This document shows, one piece after another, positions 8,878 through 52,002 of a stretch of DNA of 64,000 bases. Within the stretch, counting starts at the first letter, position 1, and every line of letters starts with the position of its first letter. Source of the stretch: Gammaproteobacteria bacterium (GTDB taxonomy: Bacteria; Pseudomonadota; Gammaproteobacteria; Eutrophobiales; Eutrophobiaceae); assembly GCA_965222155.1 (NCBI GenBank), contig CBDCTH010000012.1:1216001-1280000 (forward strand), written 5' to 3'. Below the pieces are notes generated by a model. It saw nothing but the letters and a program-made list of their open reading frames with translations, was not told where the DNA came from and made no database searches. The translations under genes and the position numbers were made by a program.

Positions 8878-8890
8878 TGACTCTATAAAA

Positions 8891-9075
8891 TATCCGCAGG
8901 TTACGTAATTAAAACATATTATCCGCAGATTACGCAGATTAGCGCAGATTAAAAATGATTCTTTTGTGTTGGAGTGATTTTGTTCTGAAATTGATTATAA
9001 GAACAACCATTGCAGCCCCGATAATATGATAAGTCTGCTCATCTTTTATATTTTCATCTGCGTAATCTGCGGATA
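8891..9075 (-). mobile_element. Non-autonomous GxxExxY element (internally deleted gene between GCAGAT-repeat inverted arms)
   Basis: Arms TATCCGCAGATTACGCAGAT...ATCTGCGTAATCTGCGGATA; minus strand reads DEQTYHIIGAAMVV|LIINFRTKSLQHKRIIFNLR*, matching both ends of the protein at 12596-12992. Confidence 0.85.
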
Positions 9076-9095
9076 AATAATTTTTCACCCGTGTA

Positions 9096-10859
9096 TTAGT
9101 CCCGTTTGAAGACTTCGTCAAAGCGGACGATTTCATCCCGTCTCGGCAAGGGTTCACCCGTTTCCCGCGCATAGTCAAGATCCGCTGCTGAATCCTCGTC
9201 ATACCACCAGAAGGAATAAGCGCCGTCCTCGTCGGAATATTTAGGCAGCACGGTTTTCGGGATACCGAATTTGTTCCAGTACAACAGGCGCCGATAATTG
9301 AGGTTCCACAACAGGATGTACGGGATATCATTGGTCAGGATGGCGTCAATCTCCCTCACCAGAGCGTGCCGTTTGTTGATATCGAATTCCGTTCTCAGCG
9401 CATCAATCATGGCATCTACTTCAGAATTATTATAGCCGGTGATATTCTGCCCGCCGGCACGATCCGCCTCCCTGGAATGCCACAGGGATTCCGGGTCCTT
9501 ATACAGGGACGCTCCCCAGGCTGCCCAGGTCATGTCAAAGTTGAACTCGTCCATATCCTTCACCCAGGCTGCCCAGTCCTTCCTGATGATCTCCAGGCGT
9601 ATTCCGACATCATTCAAACTTTCCCGGTAGATGGCCAGAAATTTATCCGAGTTCTGGCTGCGGGTCAGGAACTGGATGGTAAACGGTTGCTCGTCCTTCT
9701 CCAGCAGGCCGGTGTTTTCATTCGCCTGCCAGCCCGCCTCTGTTAGCAGACTCCTCGCCAATTCTTTGTCAAAGCGTATTTTTGGCCCCTGACAAGGTGT
9801 TTGCGCGTTATATAAGTCCTCGAAATAACATTGATGCAGGAAGTAAGACTCATGCATGATCGTCTGGTTCATCCTGGTACGATCCAACAGGTAGGCGAGG
9901 GCGAGCCGTACCCGCCGGTCGGCAAACTTGGCCCGCCGCAGGTTCATGGCGAACCCCTGGAAACCGATGGGATTATAGTTATACACCTCCTGCTTGATAA
10001 TCCAGTTGTTATCGTATGCCTCGCCGCTGGTTTCCGTCGCCCAGCGCGAGGCCGTATACACCGGATAAAAATCCAGGTTGCCAGTCTTGAATTCGGCAAA
10101 CGCATTTTCCCGTTCAGTGAAGAAGCGGAACTTGAGCCGGTCAAAATTGGCAGTCCCGCGCACGCTTTCCCGGTCTCTTTGCCACCAGTCCGCCCGGCGT
10201 TTGAGGGTAAGGGCAATCCCTTCTCTCAACGATTCCGGCTTGTAAGGGCCGCCCACGACCGGAAATTCAAAATTGATTTTATTAAAATCCCGGTCCTTGA
10301 AGATATGCGCAGGGAGTATATGGAACGAGCCCAGGGACAGCAGGTTTTTCCAGTGAACTTCCCTGGCCTGGAAGCGTATTGTCTGCTCATCAAGCACTTC
10401 CGGAGGATGAAACCGCTCAAAGGCAATCTTGTGGGGTCCAGTCAGGTTTTTCGGGTCCATGATCGCATTAAATGTCCAGGCAACGTCACGGGCGCTGACG
10501 GGCGTGCCGTCGCTCCATTCAGCCTGTTCATCCAGCCTGAACTCAAAGGTGGCCCGGTCCGTGGAAACAGACCAGGCCGCGGCCAGGTTCGGCTCGAATT
10601 CCAGTGTTAATCCATTGTTGCTGAGCAGGGATTCAAACATCAGCCCGAACAGGCGGCTGGACGTTATGGTCGTATCGAGATAGTAATTTAAACTTTTAGG
10701 GAAAGGCCCCGACCAGAACGACAACTCGCCACCCGGATGGGCGGCAGGGCTGGCAAACGGCGACATTTCTTCCTGCCAGTCAGGGTGCGGAAATTGCTGG
10801 GCAACCGCCGCGGGGAGCAGGCAAACCCATAAGTTCAGCAACAGGAACAGTTTGTACAT
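9096..10859 (-). CDS. yejA: Peptide ABC substrate-binding protein (YejA-like, SBP family 5)
   Basis: Signal peptide from MYKLFLLL, WSDGTPVSARDV motif, operon context. Confidence 0.85.
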   Translation of the reverse strand: MYKLFLLLNLWVCLLPAAVAQQFPHPDWQEEMSPFASPAAHPGGELSFWSGPFPKSLNYYLDTTITSSRLFGLMFESLLSNNGLTLEFEPNLAAAWSVSTDRATFEFRLDEQAEWSDGTPVSARDVAWTFNAIMDPKNLTGPHKIAFERFHPPEVLDEQTIRFQAREVHWKNLLSLGSFHILPAHIFKDRDFNKINFEFPVVGGPYKPESLREGIALTLKRRADWWQRDRESVRGTANFDRLKFRFFTERENAFAEFKTGNLDFYPVYTASRWATETSGEAYDNNWIIKQEVYNYNPIGFQGFAMNLRRAKFADRRVRLALAYLLDRTRMNQTIMHESYFLHQCYFEDLYNAQTPCQGPKIRFDKELARSLLTEAGWQANENTGLLEKDEQPFTIQFLTRSQNSDKFLAIYRESLNDVGIRLEIIRKDWAAWVKDMDEFNFDMTWAAWGASLYKDPESLWHSREADRAGGQNITGYNNSEVDAMIDALRTEFDINKRHALVREIDAILTNDIPYILLWNLNYRRLLYWNKFGIPKTVLPKYSDEDGAYSFWWYDEDSAADLDYARETGEPLPRRDEIVRFDEVFKRD

Positions 10860-10966: not shown

Positions 10967-12589
10967 ATGACAGGGAACATACTGCTGGAGGTAAAAGCTC
11001 TAAAAGTTTGGTTTGCCGCTGAAAACCGCCCGGTCAAGGCCGTTGACGGGGTGGATTTCCGGATTCAACAGGGGGAAACTTTCGCACTGCTGGGGGAGTC
11101 GGGCAGCGGCAAATCCGTGACTGCACTGAGTATCACCAGGTTGTTGCCGCGGACGGTCGAAATCAGCGGCGCCATAGTGTTCAACGGCATGGACCTCCTG
11201 GCCCTGCCAAAGAAGAGGATGCGCAGCTTCAGGGGCAGGCATATCGCCATGATATTCCAGGAACCGCAAACCTCGCTCAATCCGGCCCTGACGGTGGGAA
11301 AGCAGGTGGGAGAGACACTTGCGCAGCACAGGAATCTTTTCGGGAGAGTACAAAAGAAAAGAGTAATTGAATTACTGGAAGCGGTGGAAATTCCAGATCC
11401 GGCGCAACGCATGGATGAATATCCCTACCAGTTCTCCGGAGGCATGAAACAACGGGTCATGCTGGCGCTGGCGCTGGCAGGGGAGCCTGATTTACTCATT
11501 GCCGATGAACCCACTACCGCGCTGGACGTCACGACCCAGGCCCGGATACTTGCGCTACTGAAAAAAATACAACGTGATACCGGCATGGCCATGTTGTTTA
11601 TCACCCATGACCTGGCTGTGGCCTCCCAGGTGGCGGACCGGGTTGCCGTCATGAACAAGGGCAAGCTGGTTGAAACTGCCTCCAACCGACGATTTTTCAG
11701 CCGGCCACAACACCCGTATTCAAAAATATTGTTTGATTCCCTGCCGGATGCCTCGAAAAACCGGGTCCGGGAGGCCGGGGAGATGCCGTTGCAGGCTGAA
11801 CCCATGCTCAGGGTGTCTGAATTGAAAGTCCATTTCCCTGTGCAGACGGGTTTTTTCGGTCGCCCGGCAGGCTACCTGCGGGCCGTGGATGGCGTGTCCC
11901 TGGAGTTAGCACAGGGTCGAACCCTGGCCGTAGTAGGTGAATCAGGTTCCGGGAAAACGACCTTGGGTAAAGGTATCCTGCAACTGCTCAAACCTGCCGG
12001 GGGTGCAGTGTTTCTTACGGGTGACAACTTGTCCGACCTGTCAGCGTCACAATTGCGTCAACGCCGTACCGATATGCAGGTGGTATTCCAGGATCCTTTC
12101 TCGTCCATGAACCCGCAGATGATGGTCAAGGATATTATCGAAGAGGGTATGCTGTCTCTGGGAGCAGAAAAAAACAGCAGGGTCAGGCAGGCGCTTGTTG
12201 ATGAACTACTTGACCAGGTCGGCCTGGAACCGGATTTTAAATATCGTTATCCGCATGAGTTTTCCGGCGGACAGAGACAGCGCATCTGTATTGCCCGGGC
12301 GCTGGCCGTCAGGCCGAAACTGCTGATTTGTGATGAACCGACAAGCGCCCTGGATGTAACGGTACAGGCCCGGATACTGGGGTTGCTGGCAAGCTTGCAG
12401 GAGGAACTGGGGCTGGCATACCTGTTTATTACCCACAATATCAGCGTGGTCGCCAGTTTTGCCCATGACGTGGCGGTAATGTACCAGGGCAGGATAGTGG
12501 AGCAGGGCGCAACAGGATCGGTTTTAAGCGCTCCACGGCATGAATATACAAAAACCCTTTTATCAGCCGTACCAGTTATCCGCAGATGA
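10967..12589 (+). CDS. Dipeptide/oligopeptide ABC transporter double ATPase
   Basis: [32 protein letters not shown]; the stop codon lies in the downstream repeat arm. Confidence 0.92.
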
Positions 12590-13001
12590 CGCAGATTAAC
12601 GCAGATTAAAGACAAGTCTTTTATACTGAAGCTGTTTTGCGCCGAAATTGATCAATAAACCCCGGTTTAACCCTGAGGCTTTCAGATAGTTAATCAGTTG
12701 AGATTCATCATGGCCGGATAATTTTTGCAGTGCTTTTGTCTCAACAATAACCGAATCATAACAGATAAAATCTGGTAGATAATACGTTTTCAGCTTCTGT
12801 TTTTTGTAATAGACAGGAAGTTTTTTCTCTTTTGAATAGGGAATGCCTTGTAGGTGAAATCCAGGCTAGGGCTTCCTGGTAAATTACTTCGAGAAAACCG
12901 TGACCAAGTTCGTTATGTACAGTCATTGCTGCTCCGATAATAGTATACGTATCTTCATCTCTTCTATTTTTATCTGCGTTCACCTGCGTCATCTGCGGAT
13001 A
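12577..13001. mobile_element. Full-length GxxExxY element bounded by ~30-bp inverted arms
   Basis: Left TATCCGCAGATGACGCAGATTAACGCAGAT (12577-12606); right arm reverse complement TATCCGCAGATGACGCAGGTGAACGCAGAT (12972-13001). Confidence 0.75.
12596..12992 (-). pseudogene. GxxExxY protein (PD-(D/E)XK nuclease family), frameshift near 12865
   Basis: TYTIIGAAMTVHNELGHGFLEVIYQEAL, then in a shifted frame GIPYSKEKKLPVYYK...PDFICYDSVIVETKA...QLINYLKASGLNRGLLINFGAKQLQYKRLVFNLR*. Confidence 0.9.
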
Positions 13002-13023
13002 CTTATCATTATTTTTCGGCGGC

Positions 13024-14127
13024 TCAGGTTTTAGTCATCAGGTGAATGCTATCAGCCAGCAGTGAGACGGTGATAGCGCCGCCTTGTTCGAGGTGGTTGC
13101 GCCGGGCGACGTGGGTTGGCACTGACAAGTAGAGCGCCTGGCCGTTATCAACCGCAATCGTGATTGAGCTTGTCTCTCCCAGGGGGATAAATTCATCGAT
13201 TCGTCCTTTTACGGGGTTCTCTCGTTCACCTTGGGACGGCCTGTCGCGCCGGTGCAGGATAATGCTTTCAGAAGGGATGACCCAGTCTACTTCAGATTGA
13301 GGGTCAAACTCCGGGCGATAGCGGGTCGTCAGGGTGTGGCCATTCCAGTTAATACGGGTTTTTCTACTATCGTGATCATGTCCCTCAATCTGGCCGCTGA
13401 ATATATTATCGTGGCCGACCAGGCCGGCGACGCCGGCATTATCGGGGTGGTTCATGACTTCCTCGGGAGTATTGATTTGCAGGGTTTTGCCGTGGTGGAT
13501 GACGCAAATCCTGTCGGCAATCCGGCGTGCTTCGTTCAGGTCGTGGGTGACGTGAATCACCGGCAAGTTGAAGCGTAGTCTCAAACCGACAAGTTCGCGT
13601 ACCAGTTTTCTGCGGGTCTGTTGATCTACGGAGGAAAAGGGCTCATCCAGCAATAAAACCCGAGGATCACGCGCCAATGCCCGGGCCACGGCAATACGCT
13701 GTTGTTGACCCCCTGATAACTGGTGGGGATAACGGTCTTCCAGACCGCTCATGTTCATGGCGTTCAGCAGGCTTCCAGCGATAAGCCGTTTCTGTTTATT
13801 CCCGATCCGGGTTAACGGTAGCATGATGTTCTGCAACGCCGTCATGTGCGGGAACAGGGCATAGTGCTGGAATACCATGCCGATACGTCGCTGTTGTACG
13901 GGTAGATTAATACCTGTCTCGGTATCCAGCCATTGTTCCCCATGGCAGGAGACCTGGCCGGTATCCGGGGTGTACAGACCGCTGATGGCTCTTAATATGG
14001 TCGTTTTACCGCTCCCGGAAGGCCCCAGGATCACCAGGATTTCACCTGAATCGCAGGTCAGGGACACATCCAGCGGAATCGGCTGAGCCTGTTTCAGTCG
14101 GACGCGAATGCGGTTAGCGTCGGTCAT
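13024..14127 (-). CDS. modC: Molybdate ABC transporter ATPase
   Basis: GPSGSGKT, LSGGQQQR, C-terminal TOBE-like region; follows modB. Confidence 0.85.
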   Translation of the reverse strand: MTDANRIRVRLKQAQPIPLDVSLTCDSGEILVILGPSGSGKTTILRAISGLYTPDTGQVSCHGEQWLDTETGINLPVQQRRIGMVFQHYALFPHMTALQNIMLPLTRIGNKQKRLIAGSLLNAMNMSGLEDRYPHQLSGGQQQRIAVARALARDPRVLLLDEPFSSVDQQTRRKLVRELVGLRLRFNLPVIHVTHDLNEARRIADRICVIHHGKTLQINTPEEVMNHPDNAGVAGLVGHDNIFSGQIEGHDHDSRKTRINWNGHTLTTRYRPEFDPQSEVDWVIPSESIILHRRDRPSQGERENPVKGRIDEFIPLGETSSITIAVDNGQALYLSVPTHVARRNHLEQGGAITVSLLADSIHLMTKT

Positions 14128-30199: not shown

Positions 30200-30296
30200 T
30201 ATCCACAGATTACGCAGATTTTCACAGATTAAAAAGACAGGTCTGTTGTATTTTTTCATCTGCGTGCATCTGCGTGCATCTGCGTAATCTGCGGAT
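30200..30296. repeat. Empty GCAGAT-repeat inverted element between sdhA and sdhB
   Basis: ATCCACAGATTACGCAGATTTTCACAGAT ... (ATCTGCGTGC)2 ATCTGCGTAATCTGCGGAT. Confidence 0.85.
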
Positions 30297-41939: not shown

Positions 41940-43088
41940 ATGAAGATAATCCTCGCCCCAGACTCGTTCAAGGGTAGCCTGACCTCCATGGAGGTTGCCG
42001 AGGCTATGGAAAGAGGCATCAAAAGGGTGCTTCCGGGCGCTGACTGTATAAAGATTCCCATGGCCGATGGTGGGGAGGGAACAGTACAGTCCCTGCTTGA
42101 TGCGGTCGGTGGGGAGTTGATCATCTGTCAGGTCAAAGGTCCTGCCGGACAAAGCGTTACGGCCGGCTATGGGATGCTGGCGGATAACAGCACCGCGGTC
42201 ATTGAAATGGCGGCGGCTTCCGGTTTAGCGCTGGTCAGCGGCAAGACCATGAACCCGTTAAAGACTACCTCGTTCGGGACGGGTGAGCTGATCTGTCATG
42301 CCCTTGACAGGGGGGCGCAGAAAATTATTCTGGGTATTGGCGGCTCAGCCACCAACGATGCCGGCGTAGGCATGGCCCAGGCCTTGGGAGTGGTGTTTCG
42401 CAGCGGGGACGGTCGCATTATCAGACAAAACGGGTCCGGTGGGATGCTGCAAGAAATAGAGTCCGTGGACCTGGAAGACATACACCCGAAACTGCGCCAG
42501 GCTCAAATTCTGGTCGCCTGCGACGTCGACAATCCGCTGTCCGGGGAAAACGGGGCGGCCTGCGTGTTTGCTCCGCAGAAAGGCGCCGATGCGAATATGG
42601 TGAAGCTGCTTGATGACAATTTAAAACATCTGGCAAAGGTCATTATGCGGGAAATGGGTATTGACGTAGATGCCATACCGGGAGCCGGTGCGGCAGGGGG
42701 ACTGGGCGCCGGGTTGTTTGTGTTTGCCGGAGCGGAGCTCAAGAGCGGTATTGAGATCATCAGCAGGGCAACGTCCATTGAGACCCATCTACGCTCCGCT
42801 GAGCTGGTTTTTACCGGCGAGGGCAAGGTGGATTTTCAGACGGCATTCGGCAAGACCCCGGCGGGGATCGCCCGTCTTGCCGGCGAATACGGCGTACCCG
42901 TTATCGCCATCGGCGGCGCTCTGTCGGACGACGCCGGAGATGTGTTTACGCACGGGATCAATGGCCTGGAAGCTGCCATTACAAGAGACATGCCCCTGGA
43001 CGAGGCGTTGGCGAACTCAAGGGAATATATCGCTAATGCGGCAGAGCGGGTTATCCGGCTCATAAAAATCGGACAGGGAATGAAATAA
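41940..43088 (+). CDS. glxK: Glycerate kinase
   Basis: APDSFKGSL, PMADGGEG, GIGGSATNDAG, GAGAAGG, TGEG. Confidence 0.93.
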   Translation: MKIILAPDSFKGSLTSMEVAEAMERGIKRVLPGADCIKIPMADGGEGTVQSLLDAVGGELIICQVKGPAGQSVTAGYGMLADNSTAVIEMAAASGLALVSGKTMNPLKTTSFGTGELICHALDRGAQKIILGIGGSATNDAGVGMAQALGVVFRSGDGRIIRQNGSGGMLQEIESVDLEDIHPKLRQAQILVACDVDNPLSGENGAACVFAPQKGADANMVKLLDDNLKHLAKVIMREMGIDVDAIPGAGAAGGLGAGLFVFAGAELKSGIEIISRATSIETHLRSAELVFTGEGKVDFQTAFGKTPAGIARLAGEYGVPVIAIGGALSDDAGDVFTHGINGLEAAITRDMPLDEALANSREYIANAAERVIRLIKIGQGMK

Positions 43089-43272
43089 TCCACAGATGAC
43101 ACAGATGAGAATATATCCGCAGATTACGCAGATTAGCGCAGATTAAAATAAGTCTAATTTAACCCATTCGTACGTTCGAAAGATTAAATCTTCATTCGCA
43201 TGGAAACTGAAATTATAGAATTAATACCAATGTATCTGCGTTAATCTGCGTAATCTGCGTAATCTGCGGATA
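43088..43272. repeat. GCAGAT-repeat inverted element (degenerate interior)
   Basis: TATCCGCAGATTACGCAGATTAGCGCAGAT ... ATCTGCGTTAATCTGCGTAATCTGCGTAATCTGCGGATA. Confidence 0.88.
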
Positions 43273-51761: not shown

Positions 51762-52002
51762 TATCCGCAGATTACGCAGATGAAAGGCATAATATTACTT
51801 CAAGGTTTTGTAAAACCTTGTAGCGAACAAGGAATGCCCGCTAGCCAGTCACAGAGCTTGTCCCGGTATGTCGTAAGCCGAGGGATATAAACATGACTGA
51901 TTACCTCTCGTTTAAATGATTTTTTGTTATTCCTGTTCTTCTCTGTGATACCTATAGCTTTTCGATCATTTTATCTGCGTGTATCTGCGTGTATCTGCGG
52001 AT
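51762..52002. repeat. GCAGAT-repeat inverted element with nested hairpins; right arm overlaps the lolA 5' end
   Basis: TATCCGCAGATTACGCAGAT ... ATCTGCGTGTATCTGCGTGTATCTGCGGAT. Confidence 0.8.

Follow-up and report, generated by a model that had tools for sequence, protein, structure and literature searches.

The 64,000-nucleotide window analysed here (positions 1,216,001 to 1,280,000 of contig CBDCTH010000012.1, GenBank assembly GCA_965222155.1, from a gammaproteobacterium of the family Eutrophobiaceae) contains, at positions 12577-13001, a 425-bp unit in which the first and last codons of a GxxExxY-family nuclease gene are built into inverted arrays of three CGCAGAT heptamers, phased by one helical turn. 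With slightly better than even confidence, we read this unit as a decayed member of a family of selfish, insertable, heptamer-armed cassettes resembling the intervening sequences (IVS) of rRNA genes, the nuclease of which probably acts on its own arrays. The association of arms and gene across the protein family, the tracking of heptamer type with protein clade, the conservation of the arms at the DNA level and the dynamics of the sites among related genomes make a selfish insertable element, with a nuclease acting on its own arms, the most likely interpretation of these sequences.

The unit is bounded by two inverted arms of 34 nt (12577-12610 and 12968-13001), which are 91% complementary, are separated by 357 nt and constitute the strongest inverted repeat detected by an inverted-repeat search of window positions 12400-13200. 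Each arm consists of (T)ATC followed by three CGCAGAT heptamers at a 9-nt and then a 10-nt spacing. The heptamers of the left arm lie at 12581, 12590 and 12600; in the right arm, the complement of CGCAGAT is found at 12972 and 12991, with a degenerate unit (CGCAGGT) between them. This arrangement is real and not due to chance. CGCAGAT occurs 37 times in the window versus 9.4 expected (sd 3.1), a number that none of 100 shuffled sequences reached. The GxxExxY gene runs on the minus strand from 12992 to 12596 and comprises 132 codons if read through, with its start codon ATG (12992-12990) within the right arm and its stop codon TAA (12598-12596) within the left arm. The motifs GFLEVIY and LPDF...VETK were found in the two frames of this copy, the halves of which score 37.6 and 91.9 bits against TIGR04256 (curated cut-off 35) and 36.2 and 83.1 bits against PF13366 (curated cut-off 22); both halves were also retrieved by the genome search. 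The frame is broken once, by a 2-nt deletion at about 12868/12867 relative to the intact copies of the same genome (G000, contig C9) and of a congeneric one (G004). Because this deletion splits the frame, the window copy is dead: it is a pseudogene of the GxxExxY (TIGR04256) / PDDEXK_3 (PF13366) family. The components of the unit are as follows.

12577-12610: left arm (3' arm in the sense of the gene), TATC plus three CGCAGAT at 9/10-nt spacing, with the TAA of the gene and the TGA of the upstream gene inside
12596-12992, minus strand: GxxExxY / PDDEXK_3 nuclease pseudogene with GFLEVIY, D..ExK and QxxxY motifs, 132 codons if read through
12866-12869, minus strand: frameshift, 2 nt fewer than in the intact copies of G000 (contig C9) and G004
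12968-13001: right arm (5' arm in the sense of the gene), inverted copy of the left arm with middle unit CGCAGGT and the ATG of the gene inside

An earlier note on this DNA, made from the letters alone, had proposed a GxxExxY gene of about 130 codons filling a 425-bp element, with ATG in one arm and TAA in the other, so that gene and arms formed one unit; all of this agrees with the present analysis. Its arms of about 30 bp, made of three 9-10-nt GCAGAT units, were right in having three units, and are corrected here in size (34 nt), in the repeated word (CGCAGAT) and in that one of the six units is degenerate; its frameshift near 12865 exists, at the slightly different position given above.

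The unit sits between two genes for ATP-binding cassette (ABC) transporter ATPases (PF00005). The upstream gene (10967-12589) encodes a double ABC ATPase with an oligopeptide-type C-terminal region, and its TGA (12587-12589) also falls within the left arm; the downstream gene (13024-14127), which is convergent, encodes an ABC ATPase with a TOBE domain.

Inverted arms are a property of the GxxExxY family at large. In a first sample, 80 loci from public genomes of many phyla were retrieved with a 12-sequence alignment, and the score of each was that of the best inverted match, without gaps, that its start region (-120..+45) makes with its stop region (-45..+120); windows displaced by 1-2 kb within the same loci served as controls. 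Scores of at least 12 were obtained at 58/80 loci versus 3/401 controls, and scores of at least 14 at 48/80 versus 0/401. The arms of this sample are mostly C(G/A)CAGAT arrays with a period of 9-10 nt and an ATCC end, and a few clades have CACGAAT, CACGAAG or CACGGAT arms instead. The second sample comprised 30 loci from a Pfam search of 301 genomes of the phylum of the window (51 matched, mostly from one other host family, so its rows are kin), and inverted arms were present at 25/30 of these loci versus 0/110 controls, with the heptamers CGCAGAG/CACAGAG, CACGAAG, CACGGAA, CGCAAAG and CGCGGAT. The proposal that homologues elsewhere would have such arms was thus borne out in both samples.

Heptamer type follows the protein clade and not the host. 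On a quick maximum-likelihood tree of 112 proteins, 42 of which received no label from the heptamer rule and were left uncounted, heptamer class changes 10 times, versus 23-25 times in shuffled assignments (10 printed of 200 run). A clade of 69 proteins from at least 12 phyla (96% SH-aLRT) has CAGAT arms in 45/45 labellable rows, and within the single host family that dominates the second sample several heptamer types occur, each tracking protein subclades.

The arms are maintained more strictly than the gene that they enclose, since comparison of the window copy with its intact relatives in G000 (copy B, below) and G004 gave 88-100% identity for the arms and 74-83% for the body. At the 48 best cross-phylum loci (1240 paired positions), mismatches between arms were G·U-compatible on the sense strand in 20 cases, A·C in 31 and of other kinds in 72. 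The spacers between heptamers are identical more often between the arms of one element (8/11 and 5/11) than between different elements (0.42 and 0.13). The arms are constrained as DNA rather than as RNA, and there is no sign of selection for RNA pairing. In the copy of G004 (L019:850-1295), TTC stands in the 3' arm at the place of the TAA stop of the window copy and of copy B, and the protein continues through the arm, ending in …FNLRSSASSADKF; several distant homologues end in similar SA(Q)SAD tails. The read-through in G004 shows that it is as DNA, and not as coding sequence, that the arms are kept.

The genome of the window (G000; 4.55 Mb in 12 contigs) was found to contain 75 clusters of at least two CGCAGAT-type units and 24 inward-facing pairs that span 49-447 bp. 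One pair encloses an intact gene, and 23 gene-less pairs were counted. The intact gene, copy B, lies on contig C9 and has 132 codons, with arms nearly identical to those of the window copy and a body 80% identical, so that an intact copy, which the earlier note had suggested looking for, exists in the same genome. A second intact paralogue, copy A, is 37% identical and follows the same arm design with a different word, its arms being made of ACAGGAT units (ATGGATGAACAGGATATACAGGAT plus its inverse). A third arm family, CACAGAG, comprises 87 arm clusters and 27 pairs that face inward and span 55-374 bp (for example C12:784382-784755 and C12:1957622-1957880), none of them with a GxxExxY gene inside in this genome; CACAGAG pairs are nested within some CGCAGAT pairs (C12:2437171-2437340). 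For the three arm families together, 54 pairs face inward and 2 outward, and the patterns read backward were never found. The assembly is rated 7.28% contaminated, and the genome-wide arm counts may contain a few duplicates; small contigs duplicate arm-bearing stretches at C1:15475 (= C12:30629), C10:92720 (= C8:7233) and C10:104842 (= C8:19358). Four of the gene-less CGCAGAT pairs fall within the window.

8920-9075: gene-less arm pair of 3+2 units, interior with 5' and 3' GxxExxY remnants (profile E 3.8e-8)
30200-30296: gene-less arm pair of 3+4 units, 39-nt interior
43114-43272: gene-less arm pair of 3+4 units, plus two further, degenerate units outside the pair at about 43088-43107
51762-52002: gene-less arm pair of 2+3 units, 192-nt interior

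The 24 pairs have a common terminus, ATC plus heptamer, in 22 cases, and A/T-rich flanks. Direct repeats outside the arms measure 0-1 nt in 16 pairs and 2-4 nt in 8, so a target-site duplication of fixed length is absent around all 24, in line with the earlier note, which had seen none around the window copy. Twenty-one of the pairs lie between open reading frames (ORFs; overlap of at most 30 nt), in tandem, convergent and divergent contexts at 19/3/2, which agrees with the genome-wide 2295/560/553. The idea that all gene-less copies are deletion derivatives of the gene was ruled out, being true for 2/23. In four metagenome runs, contigs end at arms and the depth over arms is 30-70x that of the flanks; a near-identical empty site was sought in the contigs of these runs and none was found.

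The family to which the protein belongs is very large, with 12,606 cluster representatives at E<=0.001 for PF13366/TIGR04256, and a protein-atlas search returned PF13366 clusters only. In an alignment of 47 sequences, the conserved columns are E35, Y38, D75, E85, K87, Q99 and Y103, the first five being invariant or conserved in at least 90% of rows, Q99 invariant, and Y103 conserved in at least 90%; Q99 and Y103, which follow the ExK strand, form the QxxxY motif. The ratio of nonsynonymous to synonymous substitutions (dN/dS) between the two intact copies is 0.11, which indicates that the protein is under purifying selection and, by this measure, functional. An AlphaFold model of copy B (pLDDT 93.6, pTM 0.85) had as its top Foldseek match the Cas4 protein SSO0001 (E 6.8e-5, TM 0.60), followed by an uncharacterised restriction-endonuclease-like protein, the DinG nuclease domain, MGME1, Cas4 Pcal_0546 and lambda exonuclease. 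VIA-align yielded Z 8.0 both for the BpuSI nuclease domain and for SSO0001 (rmsd 3.2, 100 aligned), a Z near 8 being the level at which a common fold alone is certain. By its fold, the product of copy B is a minimal PD-(D/E)XK nuclease of the Cas4/RecB-like branch, and its catalytic set is intact. A PDB sequence search with the single protein gave no match, and a search with the family profile gave T7 endonuclease I over the PD..ExK core at an insignificant level (E 0.37-0.5), which was not used as evidence. The earlier note knew of no established function for GxxExxY proteins, and the family has none; the portion available to us of a survey of PD-(D/E)XK enzymes, the only survey found, gives the function of PF13366 as 'Unknown' and reports multiple transfers (PMC3424549).

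Comparison of orthologous sites within the genus revealed that these elements come, go, shrink and turn around, which answers in the affirmative the proposal that empty and filled sites be compared in relatives. The window site was matched in 18 congeneric genomes, in 14 of which both flanks could be placed; G006, G009, G010 and G017, with one flank in the locus, were dropped. G013 has no unit at this site. In G003, a palindrome of one unit (CGCAGAT-aaatc-ATCTGCG) precedes a T-run; G007, G011, G005 and G018 show either a single unit or a degenerate pair, and other repeats are present in G001, G008, G012 and G018. Full arms were found in G002, where the interior is short of 330 nt, and in G015 and G016, whose interior of about 95 nt lies in opposite orientations in the two genomes (89% identical over 150 nt when one is reversed, the flanks aligning forward). 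G004 has an intact gene in the opposite orientation, encoding an 83% identical protein. The native 3' end of the upstream gene is heptamer-like in several species, such as ATCCGCAGATAA and ATCCACAGGTGA. The site of copy B, occupied by the full gene in G000, shows internal deletions of 147 bp in G016 and 270 bp in G014, a one-unit palindrome in G002 and another insert in G013. At the site of copy A, a terminator-like hairpin takes the place of the cassette in G014, G013 and G016, and in G002 the cassette is absent and the sequence more diverged.

The gene-less pairs of the window behave in the same manner. A 230-bp insertion at 8879-9108, which includes the pair at 8920-9075, is absent in G002, G013 and G016, where the junctions were read, and in G014, as inferred from the alignment only; in the first three genomes two minus-strand genes overlap at this site (TAATG), and in the window they are held apart by the insertion. 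The insertion also includes a degenerate outer arm, ATCCGCAGGTTACGTAATTAA, at about 8893-8913, and it altered the C-terminus of the upstream gene to FKRD* in place of FQQ*. G014, G016 and G006 have the element at 30200-30296; G013 and G002 do not, and the empty site reads GGAT|TAAT. At 43114-43272, the interior seen in the window recurs in reverse in G014, different interiors are found in G016 and G002, and G013 is empty; the content of the site orthologous to 51762-52002 differs among relatives.

Other sequences were noticed at these intergenic hot spots. A different dispersed repeat (…gtcataccggcgaaggccggtatccagt… / …ctggattccgggtcaagcccggaatgac…) occupies the window site of G001, G008 and G018, lies also within C12:1957622-1957880 of G000 and adjoins C12:777556, and in G008 has a 13-nt direct repeat, ACCATCAACGGAT, on both sides. 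In G014, the ABC ATPase genes are about 850 bp apart, and this arm-free gap contains a long open frame; by eye, the frame resembles a small membrane or ion-channel-type protein.

Arms were also counted across the genus and compared with the distribution of the gene. Three-unit arms range from 0 per genome (G003, G008, G009, G012, G017) up to 114 (G016), and a reversed-pattern control gave 0 in all 23 genomes. An intact gene of the clade of the window copy occurs in G000, G004 and G018 only, plus a 61%-identical one in G010, and remnants of that clade occur in G016, G014 and G002. All seven genomes with a gene or remnant have at least 21 arms, and all five arm-free genomes are without the gene; the reverse does not hold. 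The proportion of perfect arms among those within three mismatches was 0.66 in G000, 0.82 in G004 and 0.59 in G018, which have the intact gene, and low values were recorded in G005 (0.17), G006 (0.18) and G013 (0.39). The Y1_Tnp (PF01797) genes of G000 are 7-23 kb from the nearest arm, and G001, with 82 arms, has none; a link to the transposases associated with repetitive extragenic palindromes (REP), the REP-associated tyrosine transposases (RAYT), was ruled out for these reasons.

Genes of other families were found inside heptamer arms. In G000, a pair of ACAGGAT-type arms 843 bp apart (C12:1174982-1175824) surrounds genes for a ParE_toxin (E 1.1e-5) and an HTH_3 protein (E 1.1e-11), which is either toxin-antitoxin cargo in a heptamer-armed cassette or a locus where two solo arms stand by chance. 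The sole PF05635 gene of G000 (C4:517620-518060), for the four-helix-bundle protein of 23S rRNA IVS, has inverted short-unit arrays on either side, with TTTTTAGT units upstream and ACTAAAAAC downstream; the design of the cassette is thus repeated with a different gene family and a different word.

In the reading that we favour, the cassette family behaves as selfish DNA: it enters short intergenic gaps without target duplication, crosses phyla along with its own arms, and loses its gene through internal deletion, leaving arm-only palindromes. As the most likely mechanism, the nuclease would recognise its own heptamer arrays as DNA and would break arm-bearing or heptamer-like sites, after which repair may copy from another arm-bearing copy with the arms as homology, in a homing-like manner. 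Since either arm is the inverse of the other, copying or flipping of the interior could occur in either orientation, and such break-and-copy through the arms is favoured because it would explain the inversions and the interior exchanges as well. A wider generalisation, which we put forward tentatively and regard as rather doubtful, is that GxxExxY proteins drive a class of mobile DNA not yet described: a minimal Cas4/RecB-like nuclease would read phased heptamer arrays, break palindromes that bear heptamers and be copied into them, along with its arms, by repair, and the ORF-bearing 23S IVS and thousands of armed palindromes in many phyla would be products or relatives of this process.

Several results count against a nuclease that spreads its own cassette. 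No PF13366 match at E<=0.01 was obtained in the congeneric genomes G033, G034, G001, G015 and G013, which are 94-98% complete (G033 and G034 being single contigs), and yet these have 65, 47, 82, 18 and 11 three-unit arms, respectively. Their perfect-arm share, 0.39-0.89 (0.89 in G001, 0.79 in G033), overlaps the 0.50-0.82 of intact-gene genomes; since perfect arms are equally common without the gene, arms persist, and perhaps multiply, without a resident gene. Among the gene-less interiors of G000, 2/23 match the family profile (E 3.8e-8 and 7e-7) and the others score as shuffled sequence, and they are mutually unrelated, barring one inverted pair on contig C4. Given the ParE_toxin/HTH_3 and PF05635 genes in similar arms, the enclosed gene need not be the engine. 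Physical linkage of arms and gene means that co-inheritance alone yields part of the clade-heptamer tracking; it does not account for a heptamer kept across about 50% protein divergence. Phage carriage was not observed (0 matches in 50,697 phage records), only 8 plasmid records matched, all typed as non-mobilizable, and because flank identity between species is about 75-88%, the relatives are too diverged for an exact insertion junction to be defined. As for the claim of the earlier note that the nuclease mobilises the unit, recurrence and site polymorphism therefore speak for an insertable unit, whereas the arm-bearing genomes without the gene and the few gene-derived interiors speak against the nuclease as its mover.

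These same observations lend weight to an explanation that we consider unlikely and nevertheless serious, namely that the arms are a true repeat family, REP-like, spread or maintained by another factor or by host use, with the GxxExxY gene as one of several passengers. It would accommodate arms that are abundant and intact in five genomes without the gene, the 21/23 gene-less interiors with no trace of it, the ParE_toxin and HTH_3 genes in ACAGGAT arms and PF05635 in TTTTTAGT arms, the CACAGAG family with 87 arm clusters and no gene in G000, and arms that persist at orthologous sites while interiors swap. A passenger, however, would not be expected to share its heptamer with its protein clade across at least 12 phyla while that heptamer varies between clades in one host family, nor to have its start and stop codons as part of the arms, nor to be armed at 58/80 and 25/30 of its homologues versus 3/401 and 0/110 controls. 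CACAGAG/CGCAGAG arms do surround GxxExxY genes elsewhere, in genomes of the second sample, and no candidate mobilising gene was found, as Y1_Tnp genes are 7-23 kb off in G000 and missing from G001. A role of the arms as RNA, in which a stem at the transcript ends is cut by RNase III, serving to process or control the mRNA or to render insertions harmless, with no recognition site in DNA, appears improbable. When the whole unit is folded as RNA, the arms do pair with each other in the minimum-energy structure (z -6.0), 19/24 pairs lie between co-directional genes and are hence probably transcribed, and the ORF-bearing 23S IVS, according to the sections available of its published description, combines a stem-plus-ORF layout and GACAGAT tandems with excision by RNase III (PMC4990558). 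The sense strand, though, shows no excess of G·U-compatible mismatches (20 vs 31 A·C), a stem alone accounts for neither the conserved heptamer nor its 9-10-nt phasing across phyla, and presence/absence, inversion and cassette exchange at the DNA level would be left unaccounted for; an RNA role may add to the DNA-level reading, not replace it.

Still less probable is a transposon that moves by cut-and-paste, with the arms as its terminal inverted repeats and no transposase other than the 132-residue nuclease. Inverted ends with a fixed terminus (ATC plus heptamer in 22/24 pairs), gene-less derivatives and presence/absence polymorphism would suit such an element; the lack of target duplication, the heterogeneity of the interiors, which is unlike a family of deletion derivatives, and the fact that arms stay put while interiors change would not. 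Moreover, PD-(D/E)XK enzymes hydrolyse DNA and, to our knowledge, none joins strands alone; TnsA of Tn7 depends on TnsB. Finally, that ordinary intergenic hairpins such as terminators merely happen to flank a small gene, with no system behind them, is hardly credible. The 'empty' site of G003, a one-unit palindrome plus T-run, and the hairpin at the copy A site of relatives do look terminator-like, but a terminator would explain neither 37 heptamers versus 9.4 expected in the window, nor a reversed-pattern control of 0 in 23/23 genomes, nor 54 pairs facing inward and 2 outward, nor an association that recurs across phyla. The terminator idea was ruled out, as the contexts of the pairs are the genome-wide mix, with no enrichment at gene 3' ends.

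The arms give the very large PF13366/TIGR04256 family a concrete candidate substrate, phased heptamer arrays that co-vary with protein clade, and a protein of 132 residues and an oligonucleotide of 34 bp suffice for a direct test of its function. If the nuclease does act on the arms, this would be a type of mobile element driven by a PD-(D/E)XK nuclease, without transposase or target duplication, and the ORF-bearing intervening sequences of rRNA genes, long a puzzle, would gain an origin. For annotation, the cassette family accounts for intergenic palindromes that number in the dozens per genome (several species of the genus have 46-114 arms) and that in some cases interrupt operons or remake the ends of genes, window 8879-9108 being an example.

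No published description of GxxExxY genes with such arms was found in a search that covered material outside subscription journals and supplements. Among known systems, REP and its paired form REPIN with their RAYT gene share with the window system, in the published accounts as far as available, a single- or few-copy gene flanked by its own dispersed intergenic repeat, inverted pairs and no target duplication. The earlier note had drawn this parallel, and it stands as an analogy of logic only: the repeat-flanked gene and the gene-less pairs fit it, and the enzyme and the anatomy of the repeat do not. RAYT is a Y1 HUH transposase, whereas the window gene belongs to PF13366 and is no Y1 transposase; a REP unit is a self-pairing palindrome, whereas a window arm is a direct heptamer array that forms no hairpin by itself and pairs only with the other arm. 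RAYT inheritance is described as mostly vertical in those accounts, whereas the GxxExxY clade crosses phyla with its arms, and the persistence of window-type arms in genomes without the gene is a further difference.

Homing endonuclease genes are likewise small nuclease genes in the middle of a symmetric site, with frequent decay and no target duplication. The window unit resembles them in having a nuclease gene in a symmetric site, and the break-and-repair spread proposed here would follow homing logic. Homing transfers a copy of a gene between alleles whose homologous flanks are long; in the window family, by contrast, the shared homology consists of two 34-nt arms only, found at many loci that are otherwise unrelated, and arm pairs without the gene are far more numerous than those with it. 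The one-unit palindromes at empty sites (G003, and the copy B site in G002) are compatible with homing and prove nothing. Miniature inverted-repeat transposable elements (MITEs) and their parent insertion sequences (IS) also have terminal inverted repeats, short gene-less copies and intergenic sites, and MITE-like internal deletions are found here, two clear ones in G000 and three at orthologous sites of relatives. Unlike IS and MITEs, the window family has no fixed target duplication and no DDE or other known transposase, its sole ORF being the 132-residue nuclease, and unlike in MITEs the interiors of most gene-less copies show no relationship to the gene or to one another.

The ORF-bearing IVS of 23S rRNA genes (Coxiella burnetii, Leptospira; S23p/PF05635) compares more closely. 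In the parts of its description available to us, the Coxiella IVS is a 428-nt selfish element with an S23p ORF, excision by RNase III, a sporadic distribution and a decaying ORF, and two or three tandem GACAGAT heptamers, depending on the strain, are found just ahead of the start codon (PMC4990558). The same published material, as far as available, yielded no mechanism of IVS mobility. By that description, both elements are about 0.4 kb long and consist of an inverted-repeat stem around one small ORF, with tandem heptamers beside its start, and their heptamers share the core ACAGAT, the IVS side of this comparison coming from the published text alone; the PF05635 gene of G000 likewise lies between inverted short-unit arrays. 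They differ in that IVS reside within 23S rRNA helices and are removed by RNase III as RNA, whereas the window unit lies between protein genes and not in a 23S gene; in that the IVS ORF encodes a four-helix-bundle S23p/PF05635 protein, whereas the window ORF encodes a PF13366 PD-(D/E)XK nuclease and not S23p; and in that the window unit, unlike the IVS, has dozens of gene-less copies dispersed in the genome. In layout and word, the ORF-bearing 23S rRNA IVS is closer to the window unit than the other systems compared, and is the closest published relative found.

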